A stretch of DNA of 64,000 nt from Candidatus Omnitrophota bacterium (GTDB lineage Bacteria; Omnitrophota; Gorgyraeia; Zapsychrales; Fredricksoniimonadaceae): contig JADFXH010000003.1 in NCBI GenBank assembly GCA_015233675.1, forward strand, positions 89,279-153,278. The letters are read 5' to 3'. Every line of letters begins with the position of its first letter. The first letter of the stretch is position 1. Made by a program: the position numbers and the translations under genes. Under the pieces are notes generated by a model. It was not told the origin of the DNA. It saw only the letters and a list, made by a program, of their open reading frames with translations, and searched no databases. This document shows positions 7,231 through 53,917 of the stretch, one piece after another.

Positions 7231-7493
7231 ATTTGGTCTTTGCGTTGACTCTGATTTGGCGCATTAGCATGGATGAACAGGTATTATGTATTCGGCACGG
7301 AATATTTTTGCCGTCTGCTTCGGTTTACGACAATTTTGTTCTAAAGATTCTCTTCATTTGGAACAAAATTGTCATAAATCCTCGCAGACTTTTGGCAAAA
7401 AATTCCCGAATGTGCCGAATACATAATACCTATTCATCCATGAAGCAACAAATCAGCCAGGAGCAAAAAGAATAAATTCATCCCTTATAATGC
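7224..7493 (+). repeat. Composite palindromic element: family-2 arms bracketing hairpin-family copy A
   Basis: The left arm gggataaatttggtcttt...ctgattt (7224-7257) is imperfectly complementary to the right arm aaatcagccaggagcaaaaagaataaattcatccc (7450-7484). The right arm plus cttataatgc matches the arms of the full family-2 palindrome at 26039-26276. The left arm overlaps the folC stop. Confidence 0.7.
7268..7442 (+). repeat. Long-hairpin intergenic element, copy A (family 1, subfamily with loop TAAAGATTCTCTTCATTTG)
   Basis: Outer arms catggatgaacaggtattatgtattcggcac / gtgccgaatacataatacctattcatccatg. Inner arms tacgacaattttgttc / gaacaaaattgtcata. The core ggaatatttttgccgtctgc pairs with gcagacttttggcaaaaaattcc. 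The track ORF 7233-7475 is a translation of this repeat. Confidence 0.9.
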
Positions 7494-7518
7494 ATTCATG
7501 CGCTAAGGAGTTGAAATT

Positions 7519-8916: not shown

Positions 8917-8945
8917 GCTTAATAGGACAGATAATCAGATTGGAT

Positions 8946-9098
8946 CCCCGCTTTCGCGGGGATGACGTAATAGATTCTGGGATGACGTAATAGATTCTGG
9001 GATGACGTAATAGATTCTGGGATGACGTAATAGATTTGGGTATGACGTAATAGATTCTGGGATGACGTAATAGATTCTGGGATGACAGAATAGATTTT
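8946..9098. repeat. REP-like hairpin followed by a 7-unit 20-bp tandem array
   Basis: Hairpin CCCCGC-tttc-GCGGGG (8946-8961). The unit gggatgacgtaatagattct then repeats head-to-tail from 8959 to 9098, with variants in units 4, 5 and 7. Lies between the convergent genes mnmE and the CvpA-like gene. Confidence 0.9.
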
Positions 9099-9102
9099 GT
9101 TA

Positions 9103-9801
9103 TTAATTAGCGGTTTTCTGCTGCGCTTGGCTTTTGTAGACAGCCATGACTTTTTTCATTGTTGCGGGGTCGCTCATGATTTGCTGGGTTAATTCCATCA
9201 TTTTGGGGTTGCGCATCAGTTTCACAAGGTCATGGTCTTCGATTTCTTTTTGGATTTCAGGGTCCTGCAGGATTTTTTGGAAACGGGGATCTTCTGCTAA
9301 TGTTTTTGTGTCAGGGGTTGGGGAACTTGTGTTTACAGAGGGGCTGTTTTTTAAGGGAGCAAAAAGAACATCTTCAAAGGGTTTAGAGAGAATGTAAGAC
9401 GCGGACTGCAGCACATCATTGTGTACGGCGGTCAATGTTTTTCCTGCAGGCGGTATTACAGACAATAGGATTAAGGATAAGATAATAAACACCCATCCCC
9501 AGATCAAAGTCAGGATGGACCCTGCCAGGCGGCTTAGGACAGTTGGTTTTATATCTGTATTGGTGATATCTGTCCACGTTTTTAGAAGAAATTTTAAAAG
9601 CAGATGCAAAAGTAAAGGGCCGATCAGTCCTATGGCCAGGCTTACTATCATGTTCTTGGTGCTTTGATAATAAATGATGCTGATGATAGTGGCAACTATA
9701 ATAGAGAAAGGACCTAATAGGGATTGCACAAAACCGCGTGAGGCCCCGCGGCTAAGCAAGAATAAACTTAGAAAAAATGTGATAAAGTCTGTTATAGCCA
9801 T
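9103..9801 (-). CDS. CvpA-family membrane protein with a charged helical C-terminal extension
   Basis: 232 aa. The N-terminus MAITDFITFFLSLFLLSRGASRGFVQSLLGPFSIIVA plus 4 hydrophobic segments fits CvpA. The C-terminal ~70 aa are soluble and repetitive (DPRFQKILQDPEIQKEIEDHDLVKLMRNPKMMELTQQIMSDPATMKKVM). Confidence 0.55.
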   Translation of the reverse strand: MAITDFITFFLSLFLLSRGASRGFVQSLLGPFSIIVATIISIIYYQSTKNMIVSLAIGLIGPLLLHLLLKFLLKTWTDITNTDIKPTVLSRLAGSILTLIWGWVFIILSLILLSVIPPAGKTLTAVHNDVLQSASYILSKPFEDVLFAPLKNSPSVNTSSPTPDTKTLAEDPRFQKILQDPEIQKEIEDHDLVKLMRNPKMMELTQQIMSDPATMKKVMAVYKSQAQQKTAN

Positions 9802-13823: not shown

Positions 13824-14021
13824 CTGCAAACCAGGGAAGTATGGACAGCTATTATGTATTCGGCACGGGAATATTTTCGCCGTCTGCTACGGTGTACAGT
13901 TTGGATGCTATCGCGATAAGGCATACGCGGCATCCAAGCTGTAAAGCCTTGCAGACTTTTGGCGAAAAATTCCCAAATGTGCCGAATACATAATAGCTGT
14001 CCATGCTTCCCGCGATTGCAG
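13824..14021 (+). repeat. Long-hairpin intergenic element, copy B (family 1, subfamily with TATCGCGATA apical module)
   Basis: Arms ctgcaa..gggaagtatggacagctattatgtattcggcac / gtgccgaatacataatagctgtccatgcttccc..ttgcag. Same core (gaatattttcgccgtctgc / gcagacttttggcgaaaaattc). A different apex: tacagtttggatgc-tatcgcgataaggcatacgc-ggcatccaagctgta. Confidence 0.9.
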
Positions 14022-20604: not shown

Positions 20605-20864
20605 ATTTAAATTTGTTCTTTTTATTCGTGACGTAATATATTCCGTGATGGATGAACAGATATTATATATTCGGCACGGGATATTTTTGCCGTCTGCTTC
20701 GGTTTACATCAAAAATATTCTAAAGATTCTCTTCATTTGGAATATTTTTGATGTAAACCCTCGCAGACATTTGGCGAAAAATCCCCGAATGTATCGAATA
20801 TATAATATCTGTTCATCCTTGCGGATATGCTAAAGCACAGTCGCTTCAAATAACAAATTTAAAT
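20605..20864 (+). repeat. Composite palindromic element: family-2-type arms bracketing hairpin copy C
   Basis: atttaaatttgttcttttt (20605-20623) is complementary to aaataacaaatttaaat (20848-20864). The right flank gcacagtcgcttcaaataacaaattt matches the right arm of the 26039-26276 palindrome (gacacagtcgcttcaaagaacaaattc). Confidence 0.7.
20650..20818 (+). repeat. Long-hairpin intergenic element, copy C (family 1)
   Basis: Arms ggatgaacagatattatatattcggcac / gtatcgaatatataatatctgttcatcc. Inner arms tacatcaaaaatattc / gaatatttttgatgta (perfect). Apical loop identical to copy A. The track ORF 20645-20833 is a translation of the repeat. Confidence 0.9.
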
Positions 20865-25572: not shown

Positions 25573-26004
25573 ATGTATCATAAAATTCTCATTCCTTTAG
25601 ATAATTCACCGACGGACAAGGCCATTCTAGACCACATTCGTCCTTTAGCCAGAATGACTAAGGCGGATTTGATTTTAGTTCATGTGGCCGATGGTTTTGT
25701 GGCACGTTTACAAGATCAATTAAATTTGGCGGATTCTGAAGAAATTAAAAAGGACAAATTCTATTTGGATGCATGTTCTCAAGAATTAACCAAAGAGGGT
25801 TTTAATGTTAAAGCGATCCTGGCACAGGGCAAAGAGCCCGCGGACGGTATTTTAGACATAGCCCAAGTCGAAAATTGTGATTTGATCGCCATGGCAACTC
25901 ACGGGCATGGACCTGTACAGGATTTTATTTTAGGCAGTGTCGCCGACACGTTAAGGCACCGCACAGATATCCCTATTCTAATGATCCGCTCAGCGAATAA
26001 ATGA
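25573..26004 (+). CDS. Universal stress protein (UspA family)
   Basis: 143 aa. MYHKILIPLDNS... and the C-terminal ATP-binding motif ATHGHGPVQDFILGSVA. Confidence 0.8.
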   Translation: MYHKILIPLDNSPTDKAILDHIRPLARMTKADLILVHVADGFVARLQDQLNLADSEEIKKDKFYLDACSQELTKEGFNVKAILAQGKEPADGILDIAQVENCDLIAMATHGHGPVQDFILGSVADTLRHRTDIPILMIRSANK

Positions 26005-26038: not shown

Positions 26039-26276
26039 GCGAGCATTATAAGGGATGAATTTGTTCTTTTTGCTCCTGGCGTCATTTTCTTAACGCCAAA
26101 AATTCTTATGATGACGCGGTGGTCAAACAACTCGTCCCGACGATTTCTGTTCGTCGGGACTCAAACATGTTTGACCATTTAAGACTGAGGTCGTAAATGC
26201 CCTCGTCATCATAAGTTTTTTGGCTAAAAATGACACAGTCGCTTCAAAGAACAAATTCATTCCTTATAATGCTCGC
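26039..26276. repeat. 238-bp family-2 palindrome with nested internal hairpins
   Basis: Outer arms gcgagcattataagggatgaatttgttcttt / aaagaacaaattcattccttataatgctcgc. Nested pairs cttatgatgacg/cgtcatcataag, ggtcaaaca/tgtttgacc, gtcccgacg/cgtcgggac. Confidence 0.85.
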
Positions 26277-26311: not shown

Positions 26312-26485
26312 GAAGGATGAACAGCTATTATGTATTCGGCACATTTGGGAATTTTTCGCCAAAAGTCTGCAAGGCTTTACAGATTGGATGCCGTGAATGA
26401 TTTATCGCGATAGCAGCCAATGTGTAAACCGTAGCAGACGGCGAAAATATTCCCGTGCCGAATACATAATAGCTGTTCATCCTTC
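26312..26485 (-). repeat. Long-hairpin intergenic element, copy D (family 1, TATCGCGATA subfamily, inverted relative to copy B)
   Basis: 31-bp perfect outer arms gaaggatgaacagctattatgtattcggcac / gtgccgaatacataatagctgttcatccttc. The core and apex are the reverse complement of copy B's. Confidence 0.9.
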
Positions 26486-28976: not shown

Positions 28977-29584
28977 GGATTCAAGCCAAGGCTTACGTCC
29001 AGGATGATTTCCGCCATCATCGCGGCGCATTGGGTTACCCGGGGAGCCATGGGGGGATGGCCTTGGGCACTGTCGGTTGTGCCGTCGCCGCATATATAAA
29101 CATTGCCTATTTTTTTGACGGTCATGGGTTCTTTTTCCTTTAAGCCTGCCATGCCTACCCCGCTGACAATTACCCTGGCGCGAGGCGCGTAATATTGCAC
29201 AAATCGGCATTTGAAATCTGCCGCATCAAAAGCTTCGACAATAAAATCGTATCCTTTAAAGAAATTTTCCGCATTGCCTTCATGCCAATTGGTCTGGTGA
29301 ATGAGTATATTAGCATCGGGATTAATATCCAAGAGGCGTTTTTTGAGCACCTCTACTTTAGGCAACCCTATTTCAGCGGTGTAATATTGCTGGCGGTTCA
29401 AATTGGAGGCTTCGATAAGGTCCTTGTCGATGATTTCCAGATTCTTAAAACCTGAGCGCACAAGAACCACCGCACAATTGGAGCCCAAGCCTCCGGCGCC
29501 GCCGATACCCGTTTTTTTGGATTGGATCAGGGCTAGTTGTTCAGGTTTTAGATACCTTAAGAGTCCTTGTTCAAATATATTCAT
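28952..29584 (-). CDS. thiF: ThiS adenylyltransferase (ThiF/MoeB family E1-like)
   Basis: 210 aa. Nucleotide-binding loop GIGGAGGLGSN. ATGA overlap with thiH. Sits in the thiSGHF cluster. Confidence 0.8.
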   Translation of the reverse strand: MNIFEQGLLRYLKPEQLALIQSKKTGIGGAGGLGSNCAVVLVRSGFKNLEIIDKDLIEASNLNRQQYYTAEIGLPKVEVLKKRLLDINPDANILIHQTNWHEGNAENFFKGYDFIVEAFDAADFKCRFVQYYAPRARVIVSGVGMAGLKEKEPMTVKKIGNVYICGDGTTDSAQGHPPMAPRVTQCAAMMAEIILDVSLGLNPEKNPRGQ

Positions 29585-30597
29585 AAGCCGTTTTCAATGT
29601 GCCGCCAGTCAGTGAATACCGGGTCAAAGTTTCGGGATTTCAGTGACTTAACAATTTCATCGACGGATCGTCCATCCTTGGTATCAAATTGAGGGTCTTG
29701 CGCTTTTTTTTCGAGCAGGGTATAGCCGCCAACAGAAGTGTTGGATCCGGCGGACATACGGGTGATGCCGATTTCCAAGAGGTGATCACGTAATTTAGGT
29801 TCTTCTCGGGTGGAAAGATTAATGCCCATCCGGGGGAACAGCAGGCGCGTTAATGCAATGATTTTTACAAACTGCACATCATTGACATCACAGCTTGCTA
29901 AGCTTGCAGTCTTTACGGTGCGAAGCCTGGGAAAAGACACGCTGTATTCTACGCCCGGAAAAGATTTTTCCAGTTCTCTTAAATGTTGATAAAGGGCAAA
30001 GGTATCATATACGGGATCACTTAGACCCAAAAGAATGCCTAAGGAAATGTGACGCATGCCTGCTTCCGCTGCCCGATAGGCAGTGGCATAGCGAAAGTCA
30101 TAATCTTTTTTGCGGCCGGATAAATGCACTTGGGCGTAACGGGCGCGGTCATAGGTTTCCTGATAAACGGCAATACCATCCACACCTGCAGTAAATAGTT
30201 CTTTATATTCAAAAGTTTCCATGGGATGCGCCTCAAGGGCGATGCCTTGAAAATATTCCGAGGCTATAAGGGCCGCTTCTTTTAAATAGGACACGGGTGT
30301 ATGTTTATAGGATTCGCCGGTCAGCATCAAAATATTACGTAAGCCCTGCGCATGGATAAACTGCATTTCATTGCGGTATTGATGGGGGGCAAGTTTTATC
30401 CGTTCGATTTTATGATGACTGTTAAAACCGCAATAGGTACAATGGCTCGAGCAGAAATTGGATAAATACAAAGGGCCATAGAGACTGATGGCCCCCCCAA
30501 ATTGACGGCGGGAGAGCTTTGCCGCTTCCTGGGCCAAATCCTCAACGGATTGGGGGGTATTATCGTTCAGGATATTTTTAATTTGCTGGAATGTCAT
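29581..30597 (-). CDS. thiH: 2-iminoacetate synthase (radical SAM, ThiH)
   Basis: 338 aa. Radical-SAM [10 protein letters not shown]. Position between thiG and thiF. Confidence 0.75.
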
Positions 30598-36169: not shown

Positions 36170-36346
36170 GCTTAGATGACCGGCTATTATGTATGCGGCA
36201 CATTCGGGAATTTTTTGCCAAATGTCTGCAAGGATTTATGACGAAAATGTTCCAAATGAAGAGAGTCTTTAGAACAGTTTCGTCATAAACCGTAGCAGAC
36301 GGCAAAAATATTCCGTGCCGCATACATAATAGCCGGTCATCTAAGC
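36170..36346 (-). repeat. Long-hairpin intergenic element, copy E (family 1, inverted)
   Basis: 32-bp perfect outer arms gcttagatgaccggctattatgtatgcggcac / gtgccgcatacataatagccggtcatctaagc. The apical loop is the reverse complement of copy A's with one substitution. The track ORF 36159-36383 (-) is a translation of the repeat. Confidence 0.9.
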
Positions 36347-37913: not shown

Positions 37914-38237
37914 ATGTTTTATTTAACCCCGCAGGAACGCAAATTCATTGCGACCATCATTATTATTTTTATTGCCGGTGCCAGTGTGCAGTTGCTTTTT
38001 AAGCGGGACATCGCACCCGTGCGCTGGTTTAAATCCGTGCGTAGTTTCAAGATCAATATAAATAGCGCCAGGGCAGACCAGCTTCAAATGCTTCCCGGTA
38101 TTGGCGTTAAATTAGCCGGAAGAATCATCGATTATAGGAACCAAAGCGGCCCTTTCAAATCACTGGAAGATTTAGAAAATGTCGATGGCCTTACAGCCAA
38201 GCGTTTTGAGCATATTAAGGGGCTTATAGAATTATGA
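37914..38237 (+). CDS. comEA: ComEA-like helix-hairpin-helix DNA-binding protein
   Basis: 107 aa. N-terminal TM then an HhH region NINSARADQLQMLPGIGVKLAGRIIDYR...GPFKSLEDLENVDGL. Confidence 0.8.
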   Translation: MFYLTPQERKFIATIIIIFIAGASVQLLFKRDIAPVRWFKSVRSFKININSARADQLQMLPGIGVKLAGRIIDYRNQSGPFKSLEDLENVDGLTAKRFEHIKGLIEL

Positions 38238-39262
38238 ACAGCGCTCACAGGCCATGCTGCTGGTTGACACTGTTTTTAGCATCAGGTATTCTCATAGGCC
38301 ATTTTTTGCCCGTTGCTTTACTCTTCTGGTTGTGGATTTCATCGGCACTGATTTTAGTTTTTTTGTTTCGTCCTAAAATTTGGCCGATTTACGCAAGTGT
38401 ATTTTGTTTAGGGGCGGCGCTGATCCACGTCGCACACCCTCCGGCCATGGATATCCTGCAGGACTGGCGAGGACAATTGAAGTGGTCTCTTTATCATTAT
38501 CTTGACGGTGAGGAAGCAGGGACAATGTCGGCTATCGTGCTGGGTGACCGGGGGCATATACCTAAAGAGATTAATATGCTTTTTCGGCATACCGGTACCG
38601 GGCATATTTTAGTGATTGCGGGGCTGCACATGGCTATGATGACAGCAATGATTCTTTTTATTTTAAAACTGATAAGAATTCCCCGTTGCCTGCAAATGGG
38701 GGGCAGCATTTTGTTTTTATTCATTTTTGCCATTTTGACCGGCGGTTCAGTCCCGGTAATGCGAGCGGTATTTATGGCCTCAGTGGTTCTGGCCTCATTT
38801 TCTTTTGAACATGAAAGCGACTCCTTAAATTCTTTGGCCTTGGCCGCGCTGATTTTATTGTTAATGGATGCGCATAATTTATTCGACACAGGTTTTCAGC
38901 TTTCTTTTGCGGCAGTTGCCGCCATTGTTATTCTGTATGGGCATATAGAAAAGCGATTGTCATTTTGCCCCCGATGGCTGGCTTCGACTTTGTCAGTGTC
39001 AACTTCCGCATGGATCGGGATTACACCATTGCAAATATGGCATTTTGGCACCATTACGCCGGTAGCTTTGATAGCCAATATTTTTATTGTCCCCTTACTG
39101 GATTTAACAGTCGCTTTAGGGTTACCTTTGGCTCTGGCGGGATTGTGGGCGCCTTCAGCGGCTTGGGCCATGGCCGGATGCCTGAAAGTAGTTTTTAATT
39201 TGATGGTCGTCATAGCCTACTGGTTCTCCCTTGTTCCATTCGGGTATATTCAACTAGGCTGA
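38234..39262 (+). CDS. comEC: ComEC/Rec2-family competence channel protein (competence domain only)
   Basis: 342 aa polytopic membrane protein with an ATGA overlap with comEA. AIVLGDRGHIP...FRHTGTGHILVIAGLHM fits the ComEC competence domain. The OB-fold and metallo-beta-lactamase domains of full-length ComEC are absent. Confidence 0.65.
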   Translation: MNSAHRPCCWLTLFLASGILIGHFLPVALLFWLWISSALILVFLFRPKIWPIYASVFCLGAALIHVAHPPAMDILQDWRGQLKWSLYHYLDGEEAGTMSAIVLGDRGHIPKEINMLFRHTGTGHILVIAGLHMAMMTAMILFILKLIRIPRCLQMGGSILFLFIFAILTGGSVPVMRAVFMASVVLASFSFEHESDSLNSLALAALILLLMDAHNLFDTGFQLSFAAVAAIVILYGHIEKRLSFCPRWLASTLSVSTSAWIGITPLQIWHFGTITPVALIANIFIVPLLDLTVALGLPLALAGLWAPSAAWAMAGCLKVVFNLMVVIAYWFSLVPFGYIQLG

Positions 39263-39316: not shown

Positions 39317-42300
39317 ATGAAAAAGGCGTTTTGTATACTGACCCTCTTGTGCTTTTTGGTCACAAGCATCTTGGGGCCGAGCCCTGTTTTCGCTCAGTCT
39401 GCCTTGCCGGCAGGCAGTGATATTCGTTTGCCTGCACCAGGGCAAAGGGTCCATTTAAGCCAGCCATTTAATCCCCCAATCCTTAAAGGGATCAAAATCC
39501 ATCCTAATAATCCTTTCCGTTTTGATTTTATTCTGGACAAAGGAGATCTAGAGACGCCATTAATGGCGTCTCTACAAAATGAATCAACGAAATTAATCAA
39601 ATATTTCCTGGCCAGTTTAACCATCCCCGAAAAAGACCTGTGGGTAAACTTATCCCCGTATGAAAAAGACAGTATAGTCCCGCAGTCTTTTGGTCAAACA
39701 GAGATGGGGAGAGATCTGTTGGCTGAAGATTACATTCTTAAGCAAATAACAGCATCGCTTATTTATCCTGAAGATGAGGTTGGTAAGAAATTCTGGAAGC
39801 GGGTATATGAAGAAGCAGCTAAAAGATTTGGATCGACAAATATTCCGGTCAATACTTTTAATAAAGTTTGGATAGTTCCAGCAAAAGCGGTGGTTTACGA
39901 GAATGTTGAAGCGAAAACAGCATATGTGGTTGAATCGAAATTGAAAGTAATGCTTGAGCAGGATTATTTAGCTTTGTCAAAAAATCAAATGCAAACCAGT
40001 GGCCGCCAACCAGGGGACATGTTCAATATAGAACAACAAAAGAACGTGTCCCCAAGCACGCTGCCAAACGAATTAGGGCTGAATGTGAAAGCTCCCCCAG
40101 GGCAACATTCCAACGATTTACAAGGCGTCAATGAATTAGGCTCCAAAATCGTCAGGGAAATCGTCATTCCCGAACTAACCAAAGAAGTCAACGAAGACAA
40201 GAATTTTTCACAACTTCGTCAAGTCTACAATTCATTGATTCTAGCGACATGGTACAAAAAGAAAATTAAAGACAGCATCCTGGCACAGGTGTATATAGAT
40301 AAGAAAAAGGTTTTGGGCGCAGGTTATGAGCTAAGTATTATCCCAGAGTTGCCGACCAGGGGACGTGTCCCCGCTTTTGGGGACGTGTCCCCAAGCTGTA
40401 CGCCAAGCAGCAAAGGGCTGAATGTGAAAGCGACCCAGAGGAACAAGCCTAACGATGTGGAACTTATCTACCAACGCTACCTCCAAGCTTTTAAAAAAGG
40501 CGTTTACAATTATATCAAAGAGGAAATTGACCCTGCCACTGATGAAACGATACCGAGAAAGTATTTTTCGGGAGGATTTGATGCAACAGATTTTGCTCAA
40601 CTAACCTTAGAAACAGTAAATACAATTGATTACGCTCAGTTAGGGGATTTGACCCACATGGTTAAGATTTCTGCCGGAATTAATGTGGTTGATAAGGCCA
40701 TGATAAGTAATGAGCAGATGAATGCAAAATTGATCGATGCTTATCAAGGCCCTTCTGATGAAGAAATGGTGGATTTGACCCCGTGGTTTGGAGAAAGCGC
40801 TCTAAAAGAGGGATTCTTGAAAAATTCTTTTATTTTACCCAATGGTAAGACTTGGGGGCGGCAGGTGTACATGAGAGTTGGGGGGGGGTTAAGAAAAGTG
40901 GAAGTCATTGTTCATAAGAAAAATAGGGAGGTAACAGGCATTACATTAGTAGGCTATAAAGGGGATGAAGTGAGCAGCCAAAGCCAATGGATATGGGATG
41001 GGGAAAAATTTAATTATAAAGTCCCGGAAGATAAAATTATCCAACAGCAGATAGAAAATAAGGTAACGCAAGAGTTAATGGATGCCTATAATAATGGCCC
41101 TGACGGTGTAGAGGTAAAACTAACCGAGTGGATTGGAGAAGTTCCCTTGAGAAAAGGATATATGAAAGCATCTTTTATTTTACCAAACGGGGAATTTTTG
41201 GGACGAAATATGGGTTTGGGGCTCATGAATTTGACACAAGTTAAAGCAGTTATTCATAAGAAAGGAGGCAAAGTTGAAGGGATAACTTTAGTTGGTTATA
41301 GGGAAGAGAAAGAGGTTGTAAGAAATAAATGGGAATGGGATGGGAATAACCTGAACTATCCAAAACAGCAGATAGAGGACAAGGTAAAACGGGAATTAGT
41401 CAATGCTTATGAGAGCGGGCCGGACGGAACCCTTGTAGATATAACTGATTTTATTGGGAAAAGCTCATTAGATTTTGGACTCATGAAATCATCGTTTATT
41501 TTGCCTGATGGAGATACATGGGGCCGGCAGGAATCGATGAGGGTTAAAACTAAATTGACAAAAGTAAAAGTTGTTATTCATAAGAAAAAAGGAGAGGTTT
41601 CAGGAACAACTTTTATTGGTTATAAAGGAGATAAAGAAGCAGGGCGCAGTGAATGGCAATGGGATGGAAAGAAATTTATTTATCAAGAAAATAAAGTAAA
41701 ACAAGAATTAATAAATGCCTATGAAAACGGGCAGGACGAAACGACGGTAGATATAACTGATTTGTTGGGAGAAAGAAAATTGAAAGACGGGGTCTTGGGT
41801 ATGTCATTTATTTTACCAAGTGGTAAAACCTGGGGCATTGAAGAAGCGATGAAAGTGGGGGTTAATTTAACGTCAAGTAAAGTGGTTATACATAAAAAAG
41901 AGGGAAAAATCGTTGGAATAACTTTGATTGGTTATAGAGGCGAAAAAGAATGGGGCCGCAGTGAATGGACATGGGATGGGAAGAAGTTTAGCAGTTATTC
42001 TCAAACTAAGCAACGTCAGGTAGGGGATAAGGAAATGGAAGAGGTAGTAAATGCTTATCGGGATGGGCCTGATGGGAAAATAATAGATTTGACCGACTGG
42101 CTTAAAGGAAGCTCTTTGGAATCAGGCACTATGAGAGGGGCATTCATCTTACCTAATGGTGATATTTGGCATGGCTATGAGTATATGAAAGTAGGGATAA
42201 ATTTAACACAAGCTAAAATAGTTGTTCATAAAAATGAACAAAATGTTACAGGTATTACTTTTATTGGGTACAGAGGAGACAAAGAAATAGGGCGAAGTGA

Positions 42301-45300
42301 ATGGGTATGGCATGAAAATAAGTTTAATTATCATGCCCCAGCAGATAAAGCAAGGCAGCAAGAGGCCGGGGATAGGGTAAGGCAGGAATTAATTAGCGCT
42401 TATCAGAATGGTCCGGATGGGACAACAATTGATTTAACTGATTGGCTAGGAAAGGCCTATTTGAAAAATGCTCTATTAAGGAATACGTTTATTTTACCTG
42501 ATGGGAATACTATGGGAAAATCAGGAAATGAAACAAGAACAAAAATTGGAGCTGTCAATTTAACACGAATGAAGGTGATCATTCATAAGAAGGCAGACAA
42601 TGTTGAGGGACTTACTTTTGTTGGTTATAGGGGCGATAACGGAATTGAGAAGGAAGTTGGGCGTAGTGAATGGCAATGGGTGGGGGGAAATTTAAATTAT
42701 CAAGCCTCAGAGGATAAAATGAAGCAGCAGCAGATAGGGGATAACGTCAAGCAAAGATTAATGAGGGCTTACCGCGAAGGCCCTGATGGGAAAGAAGTGG
42801 ATTTGACGGATTGGCTGCAAGAAGAAAATTTAAAAAGAGGAGTCATAAAGAATACATTTATTTTGCCCAATGGCGCGAACTGGAGAAATAGAGAAAATAA
42901 TTATATGAAGGTAGGCATAAATTTAACCCAGGCGAGCGTTGTTATCCACAAGAACGATAATAAGGTGGAGTCAATAAGTTTTGTGGGTTATAAAGATGGA
43001 CAGGAATCAGGCCGAAGCCAATGGTTATGGGATGGCACAGAATTTATTTATCAAAACAATGTGCTTAAAAATCATCCTGATGTTCAAGAAGCCATTGCAT
43101 CAATAACGAAGAATTTAGATGAAATATTCCTAAATAATCTTGGAGAATTGACGGGGCGTTATGTAGTGGATATAAAGAATTTGTTATGGGGATTAGCAGG
43201 GCATCAATTAAAAGGCAAGTACGATGAAGAAACAATCAGGAAGCTGATTGATAATCAACTTAGGGAGTTATTTGAAGAAGAGGAAGGTCTTCAATCCATT
43301 GATACAGTTGATATCAAAGAACAGGGCAAAGAGGAGTCTCCTGGATTTTTAGAAGAGCCCAATCTAACGCAGGAAGAGATTTCAGCCTTTGGACGGGCAG
43401 TTGAAGAACATCTTAAGAATTTAGAGCAGGATGAAGGTTTACGGAACATTGTACGGGATCAGGCCAAGAACTTTATCCGTAAATTAGAGGAAAAATATTT
43501 TTTCAGGCAATATTATCGGGATTTCCCGCAAGATTTATTAGGCCAGGAAGTGTCGGTGATGCTGGATCTGGCTATTGAAGAAGAAAAAGGAAGTATTACC
43601 AAAGAGGTTTTAGGGGATATATTACAAGAAGTCAAAGAAGCGCTGGCATACCAGGAAAAATTAGTAAAACTTGGCGTTAAGACACCGATGAATTTATATC
43701 AATTGTTAACCATGAAGAAAGTTTTAGATTTAAAAGGGATAGTCTTGGCTGATGAAATGGGCCTCGGCAAGACGCTTCAAGCACTGGCTTCTTTTTTACT
43801 AAGCGGGAAAGAGGAGATGTTGGTTTTAGGGCCCAAATCTGTCTTGAGCCGGTGGATGGATGATATGGGCAAGCACCTTGATACGCCGTTGGAACTTGTT
43901 ATTTTAGGTGAGTTTGATCCGTTGCTAATTTTATCTGAGAATCCGAAAATAAAGATTACGGTAGTCAGGAAAGAGGACAGGTTTAATTATATTTTAAATC
44001 CCCGGCCCCCCGCAACAGAAGGGCACAAGCGAGTAGTCTTAATGAATTATGAATTATTGCCGAATATGCAGAACTATCGACATAAGAATCAATTGCCGGC
44101 CATCCACACAGATTTTCTTGCCCTTGATGAAGCTCATTTATTAAAAAACCGTTACACAGACACTTCCAAAGCTGTGTATGGAGATTCACAAGGCCAGGGA
44201 TATATCGAAGCTGAATATAAAATGGTGATGACAGGAACGCCGCTGGAAAACAGGCCGCAGGACATGTATGCGCCGTTACAATATTTGGCAAGAGGCGGCA
44301 CGAGCGATGAGGAGAAGTTTTTTGCCGGTTTAACTGCCCGCCAATTTGCCGCTAACTTTGCCAAAGAGAGACTAGACCGTTTGTCGATGTTACATAGCTA
44401 TATATCGTCCCGCATGGTTCGTCGATATAAAGAGGATGTTTTAACAGGATTGCCCCAAAAGGAAGAAAAGATCGTAAAATTAGACCCTTTGCGCAGAGTG
44501 ATGAAAATAGGAGACAGAGAAATCCCGCTTGCGGGCAATTACCAGCAGCAAATGAGTTTATACGAGAAAGCTTACAGTGCGCCGGGATACTTTGATCGTA
44601 AGTATATTCAATTTGATGACGAAGAAGACATTAGTGAGACACCGGAATCAGAAGTCACGGAAGAAAAAAGTTCCCGGAGTCGGCATGGGATACAATTGAT
44701 TCGGATGGAGCAAGCGGCTTTAAGTCCGGATTTTTTTGAAGAAGGCGCTGATTCGATCAAGTTTGATGCCGCTAAAATGCTTGTTAAAGAAAGAGTGGCC
44801 CAGGGCAAATCGGTAATTATTTTTTCAAATTACCGTCAGCCTTTAGGGAAATTGCGCAGTGAAATAAGCCAAATGATCGGTGAAGATCAAGTGGCCTATG
44901 TGGATGGTACGGTAGTTGATAATGATCGTCAGAAACAAATAGACCTTTTTCAGGCAGGCCAAGCTAAGGTTATGGTGGCGACTATCGCCACTTTAGGGCT
45001 AGGGATTGAGTTGACCCAAGCGGATTCAATAATTTTTTTAAATTACCCCTGGAAGCCATCTACATTTAAGCAAGCCATTGACCGGGCTCATCGACGGGAT
45101 GATCAGCGTAATATGCCCGGCAAGAAACTGGAGATCATAAGCCTTGAGTACGATGCTCCCATGTCTATAGATCATGAAAAGGCAAAAGTATTAAAACGCA
45201 AGAACATCCTGGCTGAGATGATCATAGAAGGAAATTTGACTCCGGAGGTTTTACGAGCGTTTCGGGATGTTGATAAACGGCTGGTCGATAGTTTAAAAAA

Positions 45301-46834
45301 GTCATCGGATAGCATGGTGCTAATGGATCCTTTTGAATTATCATTGTTGCAGGAAGTAAGGCTGATCATCGGACAGATCGCCCATACCAATGATATGGAA
45401 AAGCGTCGACAATTATGGGACAAAACAGCTCAATTATATACTATAACTTTAGAGCACAGCGCTTCCTTTTATGCAAATTTAGCAGGTTTGGACTACTTAA
45501 GCAGTGATGCCTTTCCTGAATTAAAAGGATATGAAATTAAGGCTTTGGATCTTGCCTCGGGCCCGTCGACATTATACCGGGCATATGAACGGGGGGGGGC
45601 ACATTTGCGGCAAAATGGCTTAAATTTGGATATAACAGACTATGATGCGAATGTCATGATGTTACGGCTGGGACAATACCGCGAGGGCCAACAAATGGCA
45701 GGTCACATGGATGATTTGGGCAAAGCCATGGATGAAGGGAAACTCAAGGAAGGTCAATATGGACTTGTTAATATGTCATACGCTTTAAAATATACTGATC
45801 ATCCGGCAGCGCTGATGAAGAATATTCACCGGCTATTAAAAGAGGGAGGGGTGTTCTCTTTAATTTTACCGGATACTCATATTATCCCGCCTTCTTTTAT
45901 AGAAGCTATGCAGGCATTGGGGTTTGAGTTAAAACCGGGAGCAAAATTGATTTCCAGTTTGGATGATGAAACTTATAAATCCCTGGTGGAGGAGTATGGG
46001 GAGGGGTTTGCGCAAGATGTCCGCACTCAAACTCAAGGCAGTTTTACCTATTTAGTGGCAAGGAAAGCGGCTGAAACAGAATTGGCGGGGGTTGTGACGG
46101 ATAAAGATTTTCTGATGAGCCGAAAGGTCCCCATTGAATGGGGCAGGGATAAGGTAGAAAAGATGTTAGGCTATGAATCGAAGATGAAAATCATCCCTGA
46201 GACAGTCATGGTCCGTGGTGATGTTGTTTTTACAGAAGACTTATTAACTGATCTGCTTATGCCTCCCGCAGAAGAAACTGATTTAATGAAAATCAACAAA
46301 ATATTACGGCAGCCATTACGGTTGATATCCCAACTATCAATTTATAGTCATCAATGGGCAGAGAATCGCAGCTCAAGGCTTAAACAGGAACTTCTCAACG
46401 AGAAATTGATCGCATTGTCCGGTGATTTAACAGACTGGATAAGCGAACATGGCAGAGATTTAGATAGGGACCAAAAAGAACAATTGAGATTACGGATTGA
46501 ATCCTTAACATCTGTAGATAGAGTAAGGCAGTGGTTTATCCGGCATTTGGAAATTATTCAGGAATTACGCAGTGCCTTAGATGCGGCTATGAGCACAAGT
46601 TTAGTCAATACTCAAGCAGATAAAGGCGGGATTGATTTAACATCTGATAAGGTATTTTCTATCCAAAATAACGGCCAAGGCATTAAATTCCAAATTGATC
46701 CCGTTATGCTTCGACAGTTGCAAAACGCCTCGGGCTTTGTGCCTGTGATTATCGATATCCAGCCGATGACGGATTTACGGAAATTTTTAGGTCTGCAGGA
46801 AAATGCGGCCAGTACGCCCAGCATCGCCACTTGA
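39317..46834 (+). CDS. Giant exported multidomain protein: signal peptide + unknown N-module + 7 tandem repeats + SNF2 helicase + SAM-methyltransferase-like domain + unknown C-module
   Basis: 2505-aa uninterrupted ORF. The N-terminus MKKAFCILTLLCFLVTSILGPSPVFA/QS looks like a Sec signal. SNF2 motifs LADEMGLGKTLQALA (I), LALDEAHLLKN (II, DEAH), MTGTPLENRPQDMY (III), VMVATIATLGLGIELTQADSIIFL (V), KQAIDRAHRRDDQ (VI). Methyltransferase-like ALDLASGPSTL ... LVNMSYALKY ... LLKEGGVFSLILP. Confidence 0.85.
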   Translation: MKKAFCILTLLCFLVTSILGPSPVFAQSALPAGSDIRLPAPGQRVHLSQPFNPPILKGIKIHPNNPFRFDFILDKGDLETPLMASLQNESTKLIKYFLASLTIPEKDLWVNLSPYEKDSIVPQSFGQTEMGRDLLAEDYILKQITASLIYPEDEVGKKFWKRVYEEAAKRFGSTNIPVNTFNKVWIVPAKAVVYENVEAKTAYVVESKLKVMLEQDYLALSKNQMQTSGRQPGDMFNIEQQKNVSPSTLPNELGLNVKAPPGQHSNDLQGVNELGSKIVREIVIPELTKEVNEDKNFSQLRQVYNSLILATWYKKKIKDSILAQVYIDKKKVLGAGYELSIIPELPTRGRVPAFGDVSPSCTPSSKGLNVKATQRNKPNDVELIYQRYLQAFKKGVYNYIKEEIDPATDETIPRKYFSGGFDATDFAQLTLETVNTIDYAQLGDLTHMVKISAGINVVDKAMISNEQMNAKLIDAYQGPSDEEMVDLTPWFGESALKEGFLKNSFILPNGKTWGRQVYMRVGGGLRKVEVIVHKKNREVTGITLVGYKGDEVSSQSQWIWDGEKFNYKVPEDKIIQQQIENKVTQELMDAYNNGPDGVEVKLTEWIGEVPLRKGYMKASFILPNGEFLGRNMGLGLMNLTQVKAVIHKKGGKVEGITLVGYREEKEVVRNKWEWDGNNLNYPKQQIEDKVKRELVNAYESGPDGTLVDITDFIGKSSLDFGLMKSSFILPDGDTWGRQESMRVKTKLTKVKVVIHKKKGEVSGTTFIGYKGDKEAGRSEWQWDGKKFIYQENKVKQELINAYENGQDETTVDITDLLGERKLKDGVLGMSFILPSGKTWGIEEAMKVGVNLTSSKVVIHKKEGKIVGITLIGYRGEKEWGRSEWTWDGKKFSSYSQTKQRQVGDKEMEEVVNAYRDGPDGKIIDLTDWLKGSSLESGTMRGAFILPNGDIWHGYEYMKVGINLTQAKIVVHKNEQNVTGITFIGYRGDKEIGRSEWVWHENKFNYHAPADKARQQEAGDRVRQELISAYQNGPDGTTIDLTDWLGKAYLKNALLRNTFILPDGNTMGKSGNETRTKIGAVNLTRMKVIIHKKADNVEGLTFVGYRGDNGIEKEVGRSEWQWVGGNLNYQASEDKMKQQQIGDNVKQRLMRAYREGPDGKEVDLTDWLQEENLKRGVIKNTFILPNGANWRNRENNYMKVGINLTQASVVIHKNDNKVESISFVGYKDGQESGRSQWLWDGTEFIYQNNVLKNHPDVQEAIASITKNLDEIFLNNLGELTGRYVVDIKNLLWGLAGHQLKGKYDEETIRKLIDNQLRELFEEEEGLQSIDTVDIKEQGKEESPGFLEEPNLTQEEISAFGRAVEEHLKNLEQDEGLRNIVRDQAKNFIRKLEEKYFFRQYYRDFPQDLLGQEVSVMLDLAIEEEKGSITKEVLGDILQEVKEALAYQEKLVKLGVKTPMNLYQLLTMKKVLDLKGIVLADEMGLGKTLQALASFLLSGKEEMLVLGPKSVLSRWMDDMGKHLDTPLELVILGEFDPLLILSENPKIKITVVRKEDRFNYILNPRPPATEGHKRVVLMNYELLPNMQNYRHKNQLPAIHTDFLALDEAHLLKNRYTDTSKAVYGDSQGQGYIEAEYKMVMTGTPLENRPQDMYAPLQYLARGGTSDEEKFFAGLTARQFAANFAKERLDRLSMLHSYISSRMVRRYKEDVLTGLPQKEEKIVKLDPLRRVMKIGDREIPLAGNYQQQMSLYEKAYSAPGYFDRKYIQFDDEEDISETPESEVTEEKSSRSRHGIQLIRMEQAALSPDFFEEGADSIKFDAAKMLVKERVAQGKSVIIFSNYRQPLGKLRSEISQMIGEDQVAYVDGTVVDNDRQKQIDLFQAGQAKVMVATIATLGLGIELTQADSIIFLNYPWKPSTFKQAIDRAHRRDDQRNMPGKKLEIISLEYDAPMSIDHEKAKVLKRKNILAEMIIEGNLTPEVLRAFRDVDKRLVDSLKKSSDSMVLMDPFELSLLQEVRLIIGQIAHTNDMEKRRQLWDKTAQLYTITLEHSASFYANLAGLDYLSSDAFPELKGYEIKALDLASGPSTLYRAYERGGAHLRQNGLNLDITDYDANVMMLRLGQYREGQQMAGHMDDLGKAMDEGKLKEGQYGLVNMSYALKYTDHPAALMKNIHRLLKEGGVFSLILPDTHIIPPSFIEAMQALGFELKPGAKLISSLDDETYKSLVEEYGEGFAQDVRTQTQGSFTYLVARKAAETELAGVVTDKDFLMSRKVPIEWGRDKVEKMLGYESKMKIIPETVMVRGDVVFTEDLLTDLLMPPAEETDLMKINKILRQPLRLISQLSIYSHQWAENRSSRLKQELLNEKLIALSGDLTDWISEHGRDLDRDQKEQLRLRIESLTSVDRVRQWFIRHLEIIQELRSALDAAMSTSLVNTQADKGGIDLTSDKVFSIQNNGQGIKFQIDPVMLRQLQNASGFVPVIIDIQPMTDLRKFLGLQENAASTPSIAT
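40703..43051 (+). repeat. Seven tandem ~105-123-aa protein repeats inside the giant ORF
   Basis: Unit consensus: L..AY..GPDG..VDLTDWLG...L..G.....FILPNG..WG......MKVG.NLTQ.KVVIHKK...V.GIT..GY.G.KE.GRSEW.WDG..FNY. Unit ends fall at 41017, 41359, 41683, 41998, 42331, 42700 and 43051. Confidence 0.85.
43690..45110 (+). other. SNF2-family helicase/translocase core (domain of the giant ORF)
   Basis: GLGKT at about 43760-43774, the DEAH box at 44125-44136, and helicase-C motifs through IDRAHRRDDQ at about 45080-45110. Confidence 0.8.
45480..46070 (+). other. Class-I SAM-dependent methyltransferase-like domain (domain of the giant ORF)
   Basis: Motif I-like LDLASGPS, an acidic post-I residue (ITDYD), and motif III-like LLKEGGVFSLILP. 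No (D/N/S)PP(Y/F/W) DNA amino-methyltransferase motif is seen in this domain. Confidence 0.5.
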
Positions 46835-46941: not shown

Positions 46942-46953
46942 TAATAAATGGAT

Positions 46954-47044
46954 TCCCGCTTTTGCGGGAATGACAAAGGATTGGAAAAGGGAATGACAAA
47001 GGATTGGAAAAGGGAATGACAAAAGATTAGAAAAAGAAATGACA
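46954..47044 (+). repeat. REP-like hairpin followed by a 23-bp tandem array (~3.4 units) running into the hsp20 start codon
   Basis: Hairpin TCCCGC-tttt-GCGGGA (46954-46969). Units gggaatgacaaaggattggaaaa at 46966, 46989 and 47012 (variant), plus a partial fourth unit agaaATGACA that contains the hsp20 ATG (47039). Confidence 0.9.
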
Positions 47045-47350
47045 ATTGAAGAAAAGGAGCAGTATATCCTTAAGGCAGATCTTCCCGGCATAAAGAAGGA
47101 AGATATTAAGGTTTCGGTGGAAAACGGTGTTTTGACCATTGAAGGCGAACGCAAAACGGAAGCAGAACATAAGGACAAACATATCCATCGTTTTGAAAGA
47201 AGCTATGGGCGTTTTGTGCGCACTTTGAATTTGGGGACTAGCGTTGACCAAAGTAAAATCCGCGCCAATTATAAAGATGGCGTTTTGGAACTCGTTGTGC
47301 CAAAATCTGAGGCAGCGAAACCAAAAGCGATTGATATTCAAGTCAATTAA
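47039..47350 (+). CDS. Small heat-shock protein (Hsp20/alpha-crystallin domain) lacking an N-terminal arm
   Basis: 103 aa. The alpha-crystallin domain begins at about residue 5 (YILKADLPGIKKEDIKVSVENGVLTIEGER...RFERSYGRFVRTLNL...ANYKDGVLELVVPK). An in-frame stop at 46994-46996 limits any N-terminal extension to under 15 codons. Confidence 0.8.
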   Translation: MTIEEKEQYILKADLPGIKKEDIKVSVENGVLTIEGERKTEAEHKDKHIHRFERSYGRFVRTLNLGTSVDQSKIRANYKDGVLELVVPKSEAAKPKAIDIQVN

Positions 47351-51545: not shown

Positions 51546-51618
51546 GTCATCCCCTTGACAAGCGGGGATCCTATTCAGAATTAGTTCTGACTTAGATTCC
51601 CGCTTTTGCGGGAATGAC
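51546..51618. repeat. Pair of inverted REP-like hairpins (BIME-like) between grpE and dnaK
   Basis: gtcATCCCC-ttgacaagc-GGGGATcc (51546-51571) and gATTCCCGC-tttt-GCGGGAATgac (51595-51618) lie in opposite orientation. Confidence 0.8.
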
Positions 51619-51640
51619 AAAGGACATGGAGGATATTTAT

Positions 51641-53560
51641 ATGGCACGCGTTATTGGAATCGATTTAGGCACGTCAAACTCGGCAGCCGCCGCCATGGAG
51701 GGCGGTCGTCCGGTGATCATCCCTTCAGCCGAAGGGGCAGGAGTATCTTCGGGTAAAGCATTCCCGTCGTTTGTGGCTTTCACCAAGGATGGGCAACTGT
51801 TGGTCGGTGAACCAGCCCGTCGACAGGCGCCGATTAATTCGGAGGGGACTATTTATGCCTCCAAGCGCAAGATGGGGACGGATTTTAAATTCAAGGTGTT
51901 TGGCAAGGAGTATACGCCCCAGCAGGTCGGTTCATTCATCCTGCAGAAAATCAAATCCGATGCCGAGAAATTTTTAGGCGAAACGGTCGATAGCGCCGTT
52001 ATTACAGTGCCGGCATATTTTAATGATAACCAGCGTCAGGCAACCAGGGATGCAGGGGAAATCGCAGGTCTTAAAGTTTCCCGTATCATCAATGAACCGA
52101 CCGCGGCCTGTCTGGCGTATGGTTTAGATAAAGCCGGAAAAGAACAGAAGGTCATGGTTTTTGACTTGGGCGGAGGAACGCTCGATGTGACTATTTTGGA
52201 AATGGGCTGGGATGCGGCCGCTAAGGCTGCAACTTTTGAAGTTTTGTCCACTTCCGGTGATACTCAATTAGGCGGAACGGACATGGACAATGCCTTGATT
52301 GACTATATCACCACGGAATTCAAGAAAGAGTCCGGCATTGATTTGCGCAATGACAAAATGTCATTTCAGCGCCTGCGTGAAGCCGCGGAAAAAGCCAAGG
52401 TGGAGCTTTCCAGCACGGTGGCGACCGATGTTAATTTGCCGTATATCACGGCAGATGCAACGGGCCCCAAGCATTTAACCATGAAAATTGAACGGGCCAA
52501 GCTCGAAAGTCTTGTGGCCCCGTTGATTGACCGCTGCCGCGGCCCGGTACGTCAGGCCATTAAAGATGCGTCGGCTAAATTAGGCGCAGATGTTAAAATT
52601 GACCGTGTAGTTTTAGTCGGAGGGCCTACCCGCATGCCGATTGTTCAGCAATTCCTGGAAAAGGAAGTTGGCCAGAAAATCGAAGGCGGCATTGACCCCA
52701 TGGAATGCGTTGCTTTAGGAGCTGCCGTTCAAGGGGCCATCATCACGGGTGACGCCAAGGAAGTTTTGTTGCTCGACGTGACGCCGTTGTCCCTGGGGAT
52801 TGAAACCATGGGCGCTGTGTTTACCAAATTAATTGATCGCAACACTACTATCCCCACCAAGAAAAGCCAGGTTTTTTCAACAGCGGAGGACAATCAAACA
52901 GCGGTGACAATCCGGGTTTTACAGGGTGAACGTCAAATGGCCAATGATAATACAGAACTTGGCCGTTTTGATTTAGTCGGCATTCCCTCGGCACCGCGCG
53001 GCATACCGCAAATCGAGGTGACCTTTGATATTGATGCTAACGGCATCGTGCACGTCACGGCTAAGGACAAGGCCACGGGTAAAGAACAAAAAATCCAAAT
53101 CACGGCCAAGACTAAACTTTCAGAGGCTGAAATAGAGAAAATGGTCAAAGAAGCGGAGAAATATGCCGAAGAGGACAAAAAGCGCCGTGAGGAAGCTGAG
53201 CTTCTCAACCAGGCAAACACGCTGCTTTATTCGACGGAAAAATCTTTGAAAGATTTTGGCGACAAAGTGTCCGCACAGGAAAAAGAAGCGGTGGAAAAAG
53301 AATTAACGGCCCTAAGAGACGCCATCAAGGACAAGAATCATGAGAAAATCAAGTCCAGCATGGAGAGTTTGCAAAAGGTCAGTCATAAATTAGCGGAAGA
53401 AATGTACAAAGCAAGCGCGGCCCAGCAGCAGGCACCAGGGGCCAATCCGCAGGCTGAAGAACCCAAACCAGAGGGCGCAGAGAACCAGTCTCAAGCGCCT
53501 AAAGATAAGGGCAAGGACGACGTTATCGACGCTGATTTTAAGGCTAGTTCGGATAAGTAA
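51641..53560 (+). CDS. dnaK: Chaperone DnaK (Hsp70)
   Basis: The track start 51614 (MTKDMEDIY...) lies in the REP element (gaATGACAaagg). ATG 51641 gives the canonical [14 protein letters not shown], with a GGAGGA Shine-Dalgarno 7 nt upstream. DLGGGTLDV and the C-terminal lid are present. Confidence 0.95.
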
Positions 53561-53570
53561 ATACGCGCAG

Positions 53571-53747
53571 GGCCGCGAGTAAAAATATATTACTTTCCAC
53601 ACGGAATATTTTCGCCGTCTGCTTCGGTTTACAACAAAAATGTTCTAAAGATTCTCTTCATTTGGAACATTTTTGTTGTAAAACCTTGCAGACATTTGGC
53701 GAAAAATTCCTTAATGTGTGGAAAGTAATATATCTTTACTCACGGCC
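53571..53747 (+). repeat. Long-hairpin intergenic element, copy F (family 1, divergent outer stem)
   Basis: Outer arms ggccgcgagtaaaaatatattactttccacac / gtgtggaaagtaatatatctttactcacggcc. Inner arms tacaacaaaaatgttc / gaacatttttgttgta (perfect). Core and apical loop as in copies A and C. Confidence 0.9.
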
Positions 53748-53754
53748 ACTAGTG

Positions 53755-53917
53755 CATTGAATTATGGTGGTATTAGCGGGTGTCATTAGCCTCGATATTA
53801 AGGCGCGCACGGCACCTGCACAAGTGGGCGGTTTAGGGGGCACTATCGTCGGTGCTGCTGTTAAGGTTGCCCTCGCTTGAGGAGCACCTTAATGTTGAGG
53901 CTAATGACAGGCCCCGC
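53755..53917 (+). promoter_or_regulatory. Conserved structured leader, copy 2 (upstream of dnaJ)
   Basis: Arms gtcattagcctcgatattaagg (53782-53803) / ccttaatgttgaggctaatgac (53887-53908) enclose ~83 nt. Followed by gacaggccccgc (53906-53917) and ctggatctaat. Paralogous to 47370-47540. Confidence 0.4.

Follow-up and report, generated by a model that had tools for sequence, protein, structure and literature searches.

What maintains a family of long hairpins between the genes of a bacterium known from its DNA? The question is raised by a 64,000-nt stretch of a Candidatus Omnitrophota genome (contig JADFXH010000003.1 of assembly GCA_015233675.1, positions 89,279 to 153,278 of the forward strand), hereafter the window, which holds six hairpin copies, designated A to F, of one family, each of the approximately 175-bp class. 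Omnitrophota are uncultured and known almost only from metagenome-assembled genomes (MAGs). To our knowledge, their mobile DNA has been described at the level of insertion sequence (IS) and recombinase genes, and a text search of one Omnitrophota genome survey found no mention of MITEs (miniature inverted-repeat transposable elements), palindromes, hairpins or intergenic repeats. Our analysis suggests that the element is a REPIN-like, non-autonomous mobile palindromic DNA repeat of a Candidatus Omnitrophota lineage, with a bulged core that is recognized in trans, a reading to which we assign a probability of about 0.6.

Six hairpins of one family in the window

The six copies reported by a first-pass annotation of the window were all recovered, each as a single end-to-end hairpin of 174-213 nt with a minimum free energy (MFE) of -93 to -128 kcal/mol and a z score of -15 to -19 relative to dinucleotide shuffles. 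The 19-nt core pattern TTTTYGCCGTCTGCTWCGG occurred six times in the window, versus 0.05 occurrences expected, when up to three mismatches were allowed. The inner-stem pairs quoted in the annotation also proved correct, and the six copies folded equally well on either strand. Their positions are as follows.

7268-7442 (+): copy A, the whole hairpin element, 175 nt; MFE -97.3, z -15.1
13824-14021 (+): copy B, hairpin extended to 198 nt, apical module type II; z -18.2
20648-20821 (+): copy C; z -16.7
26312-26485 (-): copy D, apical module type II, antisense to usp and mnmG; arms of 31 nt, 100% paired
36170-36346 (-): copy E, antisense to its flanking genes; arms of 32 nt at 100%, z -19.3
53553-53765 (+): copy F, of outer-stem family OS2 (...TTTCCACAC), located between dnaK and dnaJ, with the family-conserved portion at 53571-53747; z -17.3

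B and D, which are 93-94% identical to each other, carry a different apical module, and F belongs to a different outer-stem family. All six do lie between same-strand genes: A between a folC-like gene and mnmE, B between genes for a GH94 protein and a solute-binding protein, C between a TPR gene and a gene of unknown function, D between usp and mnmG, E between a gene of unknown function and uvrD, and F between dnaK and dnaJ. Since all of these flanking genes are on the + strand, copies D and E are antisense to their neighbors. The arrangement of the genes suggests that the copies may be co-transcribed with them, with a putative side effect on mRNA. An 80-aa TTG open reading frame (ORF) at 7233-7475 (+) crosses copy A and is likely a repeat artifact.

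Distribution of the family

An exact 23-mer of the 5' core was found at 24 loci in eight MAGs labeled Candidatus Omnitrophota or uncultured Planctomycetales. Loci under both labels were syntenic with the window or with Omnitrophota-labeled loci, at 72-84% nucleotide identity. A metagenome scan with the 3' core added at least 120 further loci, so that the pattern scans together yielded more than 140 loci beyond the window, all of them in Candidatus Omnitrophota MAGs or metagenomes. Judged by their contig series, the metagenome loci presumably come from peat, bog and wetland samples. A profile search over all loci gave 159 matches, approximately 129 of them near full length and 110 unique, and the family statistics on pairing and conservation given below are based on a MAFFT alignment of 106 copies. 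Copy density was uneven, with six copies per 64 kb in the window versus five exact-core matches on approximately 1.7 Mb of contigs in the MAG CAVYLG.

Rfam returned no match at the gathering threshold, and at E<=10 it returned generic miRNA-precursor hairpin models alone, with 14-28 bits versus thresholds of 58-195; a known RNA family was therefore ruled out. Plasmids, phages and viral contigs showed no similarity to the element, and blastn found no match in 5,426 E. coli genomes (28 Gb). A Neisseria origin, suggested by the motif GCCGTCTG and by dRS3-like ATTCCC-N8-GGGAAT repeats, was rejected because the genome-scan matches were all in MAGs labeled Omnitrophota or Planctomycetales. The family, which had not been recognized in the first-pass annotation either, is without a match in the libraries and papers searched and is previously undescribed.

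Anatomy of the element

Copy A illustrates the parts of the element.

7268-7298 (+): outer stem, 5' arm, outer-stem family OS1, GATGAACAGSTATTATGTATTCGGCAC; pairs with 7412-7442, 31 nt at 97%
7299-7318 (+): 5' core GGAATATTTTTGCCGTCTGC, with an A bulge at 7304; most columns invariant, or conserved to 90% or more, in the 106-copy alignment
7319-7327 (+): conserved junction TTC-GGTTTA, the 5' side of a 3x2 internal loop followed by GG/CC and TTTA/TAAA pairs
7328-7341 (+): variable inner stem, 5' arm; in helix 8, both sides changed in 10 of 14 pairs
7342-7360 (+): apical module type I, TAAAGATTCTCTTCATTTG, folding to a 6-nt loop
7361-7383 (+): inner stem, 3' arm, with the TAAA-N-CC-TY junction
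7384-7406 (+): 3' core GCAGAC-TTTT-GGCAAAAAATTCC, with the 4-nt bulge WTTT at 7390-7393
7407-7411 (+): conserved 5-nt bulge, CGAAT (YKAWT in the family)
7412-7442 (+): outer stem, 3' arm, pairing with the 5' arm

Each element contains two inverted copies of a recognition core of approximately 20 nt, GGAAT(A)TTTTNGCC-(0 or 4 nt)-GTCTGC, whose columns are mostly invariant or at least 90% conserved. The claim that the core is present in every window copy holds overall; copy C has the compensated GGGAT.../...ATCCC in place of GGAAT.../...ATTCC, and copies B and D have one extra G. Among 130 copies, the starts of the two cores were 74 nt apart in 99 and 72-77 nt apart in 126; the median hairpin span was 179 nt. 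The core regions alone do not fold (z -1.1 to +0.26). Family conservation ends approximately 31-33 nt outside the core, such that the termini are the least conserved part of the element and the invariant sequence is internal. The invariance of the core is more than an effect of ascertainment, as each core was confirmed in loci picked by the other: the 5' core, with at most one mismatch, was present upstream of 130 of the 152 loci chosen by the 3' core alone, and none of the 25 full copies at loci chosen by the 5' core alone lacked the 3' core, which showed four single-base variants.

The first-pass annotation had correctly pointed to conserved bulges beside variable stems but had not listed the 5-nt YKAWT bulge, the 1-nt A bulge or the 3x2 internal loop. 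The three bulges (A, WTTT and YKAWT) and the internal loop keep the same asymmetry across copies. With nhmmer, copy A scored 193 forward versus 78 in reverse, and the family scored approximately 190 bits forward versus approximately 77 in reverse; the element therefore has an intrinsic orientation. The 19-nt apical module reported for copies A, C, E and F is indeed conserved, but it is not an open loop, as it folds to the 6-nt loop TTCTCT. This type I module was present in 77 of the 106 copies. Outer stems fall into at least six families and apical modules into five types, in many combinations, indicating that the modules reassort. At four loci (L072, L117, L074 and L056, in our own locus numbering), the cores are kept and the apex is replaced by a completely different or much longer palindromic insert, which in L072 is a near-perfect 60-nt palindrome; the apex thus tolerates cargo or nested insertions.

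Base pairing is selected and looks to be maintained in DNA

At the 49 consensus pairs of the alignment, 96.1% of cells were paired, versus 81.9% after shuffling and 39-52% with slid partners. Both sides had changed in 26 of these pairs, and the covariation score of 0.366 compares with 0.118 after shuffling and 0.04-0.10 with slid partners. One core position, beside GCC, showed all four Watson-Crick pairs (UA 61, CG 22, GC 19, AU 1). The paired stem changes seen in the window thus extend to the family, well beyond both controls, and base pairing is under selection.

The annotation had left a choice between an RNA and a DNA hairpin recognized by a protein. At the consensus pairs, G·T mismatches (41 cells, 0.8%) were rarer than A·C mismatches (76 cells). 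The ratio of G·T to A·C was 22:38 in sense copies and 8:19 in antisense copies; because the imbalance runs the same way in both, it follows the element and not the transcript. The orientation check suggested by the annotation showed that 28 of the 86 family copies between co-directional genes (33%) are antisense. Given that the transcribed strand does not favor G·T above A·C, that neither strand folds better than the other and that a third of the copies are antisense, pairing looks to be maintained in DNA rather than specifically in RNA, and of the two options it is the DNA hairpin that our data favor.

These results bear directly on the explanation that comes closest to the mobile-repeat reading, namely that the element is a cis-acting structured RNA, a co-transcribed hairpin whose conserved loops and bulges are read by an RNA-binding protein or by RNase III/E and which sets mRNA stability or how strongly the flanking genes are expressed relative to each other. 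Nearly all copies lie between co-directional genes, some in tightly packed operons (dnaK/dnaJ, moxR/DUF58 and the ruvB junction in L111), sense copies are in excess, the pairs covary strongly, motifs outside the pairs are conserved, and ERIC and Correia elements provide precedents. However, the scarcity of G·U relative to A·C in sense copies is opposite to what selection on RNA would give, the antisense third would be transcribed into another RNA, its bulges on the opposite arm, sites are freely gained and lost between related species, and Rfam offers nothing but generic hairpin models far under threshold. We therefore consider an RNA function unlikely.

Copy pairs at least 97% identical differed by six single changes versus one compensated change, and those 94-97% identical by 91 single versus 33 compensated changes, whereas in copies less than 85% identical 68% of the differing pairs were compensated. 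Instant arm-to-arm copying is probably not the origin of the paired changes, because close copies differ chiefly by single changes and because it would erase the conserved bulges. The gradient from single to compensated changes is what a master-copy model predicts, in which copied lineages must fold and inserted copies decay by single hits.

Copies are gained, lost and replaced

Comparison of contigs from related species with 75-85% identical flanks identified approximately 11 filled/empty sites. One of the empty sites lies in the window.

29581-29591 (29585): empty site where thiF-like and BATS/radical-SAM ORFs overlap (ATGA), with a 6-nt gap; L091 has an OS2-type copy here

The site orthologous to that of copy C is occupied in L007, L058 and L062, and the element is absent from it in L091. 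At this same site, positions 11597-11745 of L091 contain a GC-rich hairpin that is short and unrelated, GGGGTCAACTCC...GGAGTTGACCCC, with a T-rich stretch after it; one intergenic site thus harbors different hairpin elements in different species.

Copies that are 97-99% identical were found at unlinked loci, both within one MAG (L011 and L021) and within one assembly (L078 and L096). By contrast, copies at orthologous sites were no more alike than random pairs (identity 0.67-0.93 versus a random-pair median of 0.74) and often belonged to another outer-stem family. Orientation was flipped in seven of approximately 17 orthologous-site comparisons, including A versus L076, E versus L059, and F versus L036 and L063. 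At the E site in L059 the flipped copy is also of another outer-stem family, as are those at the F site in L036 and L063; between L017 and L034 the copies are flipped and 93% identical. Where flanks were 100% identical, orientation was always the same, but these are duplicate assemblies. Given the dissimilarity of the copies and the differences in subfamily and orientation, vertical inheritance at orthologous sites was ruled out. Many copies lie at contig ends, and the element repeatedly adjoins two other long-hairpin repeat families and CGTC-type repetitive extragenic palindromes (REPs), with which it builds mosaic nests between genes. An inserted copy in L111 extends the reading frame of ruvB and changes its C-terminus relative to the empty allele in L106.

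The first-pass annotation had used the pattern of conserved loops and paired stem changes as an argument against a selfish repeat. That argument is not supported, given presence/absence polymorphism, near-identical unlinked copies, replacement, flipping, module shuffling and nesting. Paired changes are compatible with a mobile hairpin because the REPIN literature reports them where the fold is needed for mobilization (PMC3116915).

Target-site duplication was not detected: the best flanking direct repeats averaged 3.31 nt, versus 3.33 nt in controls, a 2-nt duplication being below what the test excludes. Single-strand transposition of the IS200/IS605 and REPIN types leaves no target-site duplication. 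This result, together with the anatomy, speaks against a classical MITE, that is, an internally deleted IS of the DDE type that moves by cut-and-paste via its terminal inverted repeats (TIRs), the hairpin being a by-product of long TIRs. The element is short, non-coding and multi-copy, its ends are inverted repeats, and it shows insertion polymorphism, several subfamilies and nesting with other repeats, all as a MITE would. Yet, besides the lack of a detectable duplication (of which a 2-nt TA would be beyond the test's reach), the termini are its least conserved part and fall into at least six outer-stem families while the invariant sequence is internal, complementarity spans the whole element rather than its ends, and no IS with ends matching the element was found in the approximately 1 Mb of loci. 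An origin of this kind appears improbable to us.

Could the core instead be a host-domesticated DNA site, bound by a chromosomal protein that acts in nucleoid organization, supercoiling, replication or repair, or in taking up DNA, with copies retained for that role? The motif GCCGTCTG is similar to the Neisseria uptake sequence, and ComEA and ComEC genes lie at 37914-39262. Moreover, several species have an element at the same intergenic sites, and the core is invariant while the flanking genes are only approximately 75-80% identical. The 9-mer GCCGTCTGC, which has 8 bases in common with the Neisseria DNA uptake sequence GCCGTCTGAA, occurs in the window as follows.

7310, 13879, 20689, 53614 (+) and 26434, 36295 (-): GCCGTCTGC within elements
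1575 (+) and 49761 (-): GCCGTCTGC outside elements

With only eight occurrences in 64 kb, six of them within elements, the 9-mer is far below uptake-signal density (approximately 1 per kb, coding DNA included) and is not enriched outside elements, and a DNA uptake sequence was accordingly ruled out. Filled/empty polymorphism is common, copy density differs greatly between genomes, and copies cluster with other selfish-looking repeats. These observations make a domesticated host site highly improbable.

A promoter candidate on the reverse strand of copy A (TTGCCA-N16-TATGAC) was rejected, as it is not conserved across 81 copies; the best sigma70-like site had approximately 8 of 12 matches and was present in at most 40 of the 81. 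That the element is an inverton, whose outer inverted repeats are recombined by an invertase so as to flip a promoter-bearing asymmetric core, is scarcely credible despite the seven orientation differences among the approximately 17 orthologous sites, as neither orientation shows a conserved sigma70-like promoter, no recombinase was found in the window, and the flipped copies are mostly of other subfamilies, which indicates replacement rather than switching.

A proposed mechanism and the points against it

If the element is a REPIN-like mobile repeat, its two inverted cores, held at a fixed 74-nt spacing within the approximately 179-nt hairpin, would pair into one imperfect duplex when folded, either in single-stranded DNA or in a cruciform. 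The extrahelical bases (the A, WTTT and YKAWT bulges and the 3x2 loop) would supply the polarity of the element, and a protein supplied in trans would recognize the bulged core and mobilize the element without target-site duplication. Copying would be restricted to lineages that still fold; if only such lineages are copied, stems would drift yet change in pairs, and inserted copies would slowly gain single mismatches. Our data show how the element is built, that its pairs covary, that no RNA-specific signature is present, that copies are gained and lost and that target-site duplication is absent; that the substrate is folded DNA, and that a partner enzyme exists and of which type, we infer. 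More tentatively, and with considerable doubt, we propose that an enzyme that works on folded single-stranded DNA could recognize the bulged core, and that element and enzyme would make up a vertically inherited REPIN-RAYT-like replicator system in Omnitrophota that evolved independently of the GTAG/CGTC REPs. The site architecture of such a system would be new, with the core placed internally between variable stems and the polarity set by extrahelical bases.

Several points weigh against the mobile-repeat reading. As the first-pass annotation had stated for transposases, the 43 window ORFs include no transposase or recombinase by Pfam, and no partner gene was found beside paired, inverted or half copies, where housekeeping genes lie instead (scpA-ruvB, hisB, panC, folK and bat/moxR). 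Nor did a recurrent family emerge among 902 ORFs in approximately 1 Mb of flanking DNA, a comparison made by clustering only, with no profile search, and thus not exhaustive. In addition, the cores are non-palindromic and lie approximately 31 nt inside the element, unlike those of REPs. The loci were gathered with exact core patterns, so that diverged cores were missed and core invariance is partly built in. The family is sense-biased, 58:28 (p = 0.0016, with shared ancestry ignored), which could reflect an RNA-level constraint or a replication-linked constraint or insertion. Finally, retention by the host could be another reason why the same sites between genes are occupied time and again. 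Separately, L077 has 1.4 kb of additional DNA at the E site, which was considered as a source of the partner and rejected, as it consists of three unrelated genes.

Comparison with known systems

By analogy, REPINs are the closest functional counterpart. They consist of two invariant inverted 16-mers 71 bp apart, separated by a spacer in which compensatory changes are common, and are mobilized by a RAYT (Bertels & Rainey 2011, PMC3116915). The element likewise has near-invariant inverted units at a fixed spacing (74 nt, versus 71 bp in REPINs) within one hairpin, and a less conserved spacer whose hairpin is kept by compensatory changes (10 of 14 pairs in helix 8). It is also extragenic, is present in tens of copies or more, combines persistence with turnover in its lineage and lacks target-site duplication. 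It differs from REPINs in that its two units are distinguished by conserved bulges and in that its host phylum is Omnitrophota; moreover, no single-copy RAYT flanked by repeats was seen in the window or in approximately 1 Mb of loci, where the flank ORFs were only partly profiled. REPs themselves are defined as palindromes of 20-40 nt tagged with GTAG or CGTC at one end (PMC3733652). The cores of the element, by contrast, are not palindromes, have no terminal GTAG/CGTC tag and are placed approximately 31 nt inside a variable outer stem, and although CGTC occurs inside its GCCGTCTGC, no 8-9 bp stem follows. As for the conserved terminal inverted repeats that a MITE shares with a parent IS, the ends of the element are inverted repeats of at least six families, and no parent IS was found in approximately 1 Mb of flanks.

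The ERIC/IRU sequences of Enterobacteriaceae are imperfect palindromes of approximately 127 bp (PMC3184786). Like them, the element is a long imperfect palindrome in transcribed intergenic regions, occurs in both orientations and is variably present at orthologous sites. ERIC is not known to have a cognate transposase, and none was found for the element. The two share no sequence similarity, judged by the lack of any match in the 5,426 E. coli genomes. Reports on ERIC-type sequences describe TIRs, target duplications and a flanking TA; for the element, no duplication is detectable. Its stems are modular, and its bulged core is internal and invariant. Correia elements of Neisseria (CREE or NEMIS; PMC2649163) resemble the element in being 100-160 bp long, intergenic and co-transcribed, with inverted-repeat ends and a conserved core, in showing filled/empty evidence of mobility and in residing in genomes that also carry REPs of the dRS3 (CGTC) type. 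Correia elements, however, have promoters, a site for integration host factor and TA flanks, whereas the element has no conserved promoter and is self-complementary over its whole length. A search of the window with the 26-bp Correia TIR gave no match at up to three mismatches.

As a functional analogy only, attC sites and the end hairpins of IS200/IS605 also have stems conserved in structure and bulged bases that give polarity. Unlike these, the element is not in cassette arrays and has no adjoining integrase or TnpA; it is flanked by housekeeping genes, occurs in both orientations, is much longer and has an unrelated core.

Neighboring repeats and genes

A second long-hairpin family, R2, of approximately 240 nt and with the ends GTAAGGGATRAATTTGTTCTTT.../...AAAGAACAAATTYATYCCTTAY, is present at 26039-26276 in the window (z -15.4), 36 nt from copy D, and a solo R2 end at 7456-7502 lies 14 nt from copy A. 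R2 adjoins the main element in at least nine other loci (L011, L064, L106, L107, L122, L143, L100, L110 and L033). A third palindromic family, R3 (...GTAGTAGAAGGCTGMTTTGGCTGGTCCCCGARCGTTCAG...), was seen in the 3' flanks of the element at L025, L116, L137 and L135.

CGTC-tagged hairpins of the REP type, exemplified on the minus strand by CGTC-ATCCCCGC-GAAA-GCGGGGAT, lie at 8943-9119, 46951-47045 and 51595-51624 of the window, with a weaker one at 25635-25664, and also beside elements in L042 and L111. After those at 8943-9119 and 46951-47045 come tandem repeats of a 20-nt or 23-nt unit, in seven and three copies, respectively. Neisseria dRS3 is a member of this class of hairpin, and the arrangement recalls the NIME mosaics of Neisseria.

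Among the genes of the window, a 2,505-aa ORF at 39317-46834 (+) contains approximately seven tandem units of approximately 330 nt (approximately 110 aa) at 40826-43060, followed by SNF2 helicase and methyltransferase domains. ComEA (37914-38237) and a ComEC-like ORF (38234-39262) are encoded directly upstream.

Implications

For those who work with Omnitrophota genomes, the element has practical consequences: short-read assemblies break at it, since many copies are found where contigs end; it gives rise to false ORFs, that at 7233-7475 being an example; and it could be used as a lineage marker. More generally, strong covariation alone does not point to an RNA, and setting the asymmetry between G·U and A·C against the direction of transcription is an inexpensive way to discriminate. 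Should the partner enzyme come to light, a new, well-defined substrate for studies of hairpin-DNA recognition would be available in the bulged core. The architecture of the element falls outside the definitions of MITEs and REPs, and the family indicates that long-hairpin replicators with REPIN-like population behavior exist outside the Proteobacteria and Cyanobacteria, in which such elements were studied. It is a new and interesting repeat family, not a new kind of biology.

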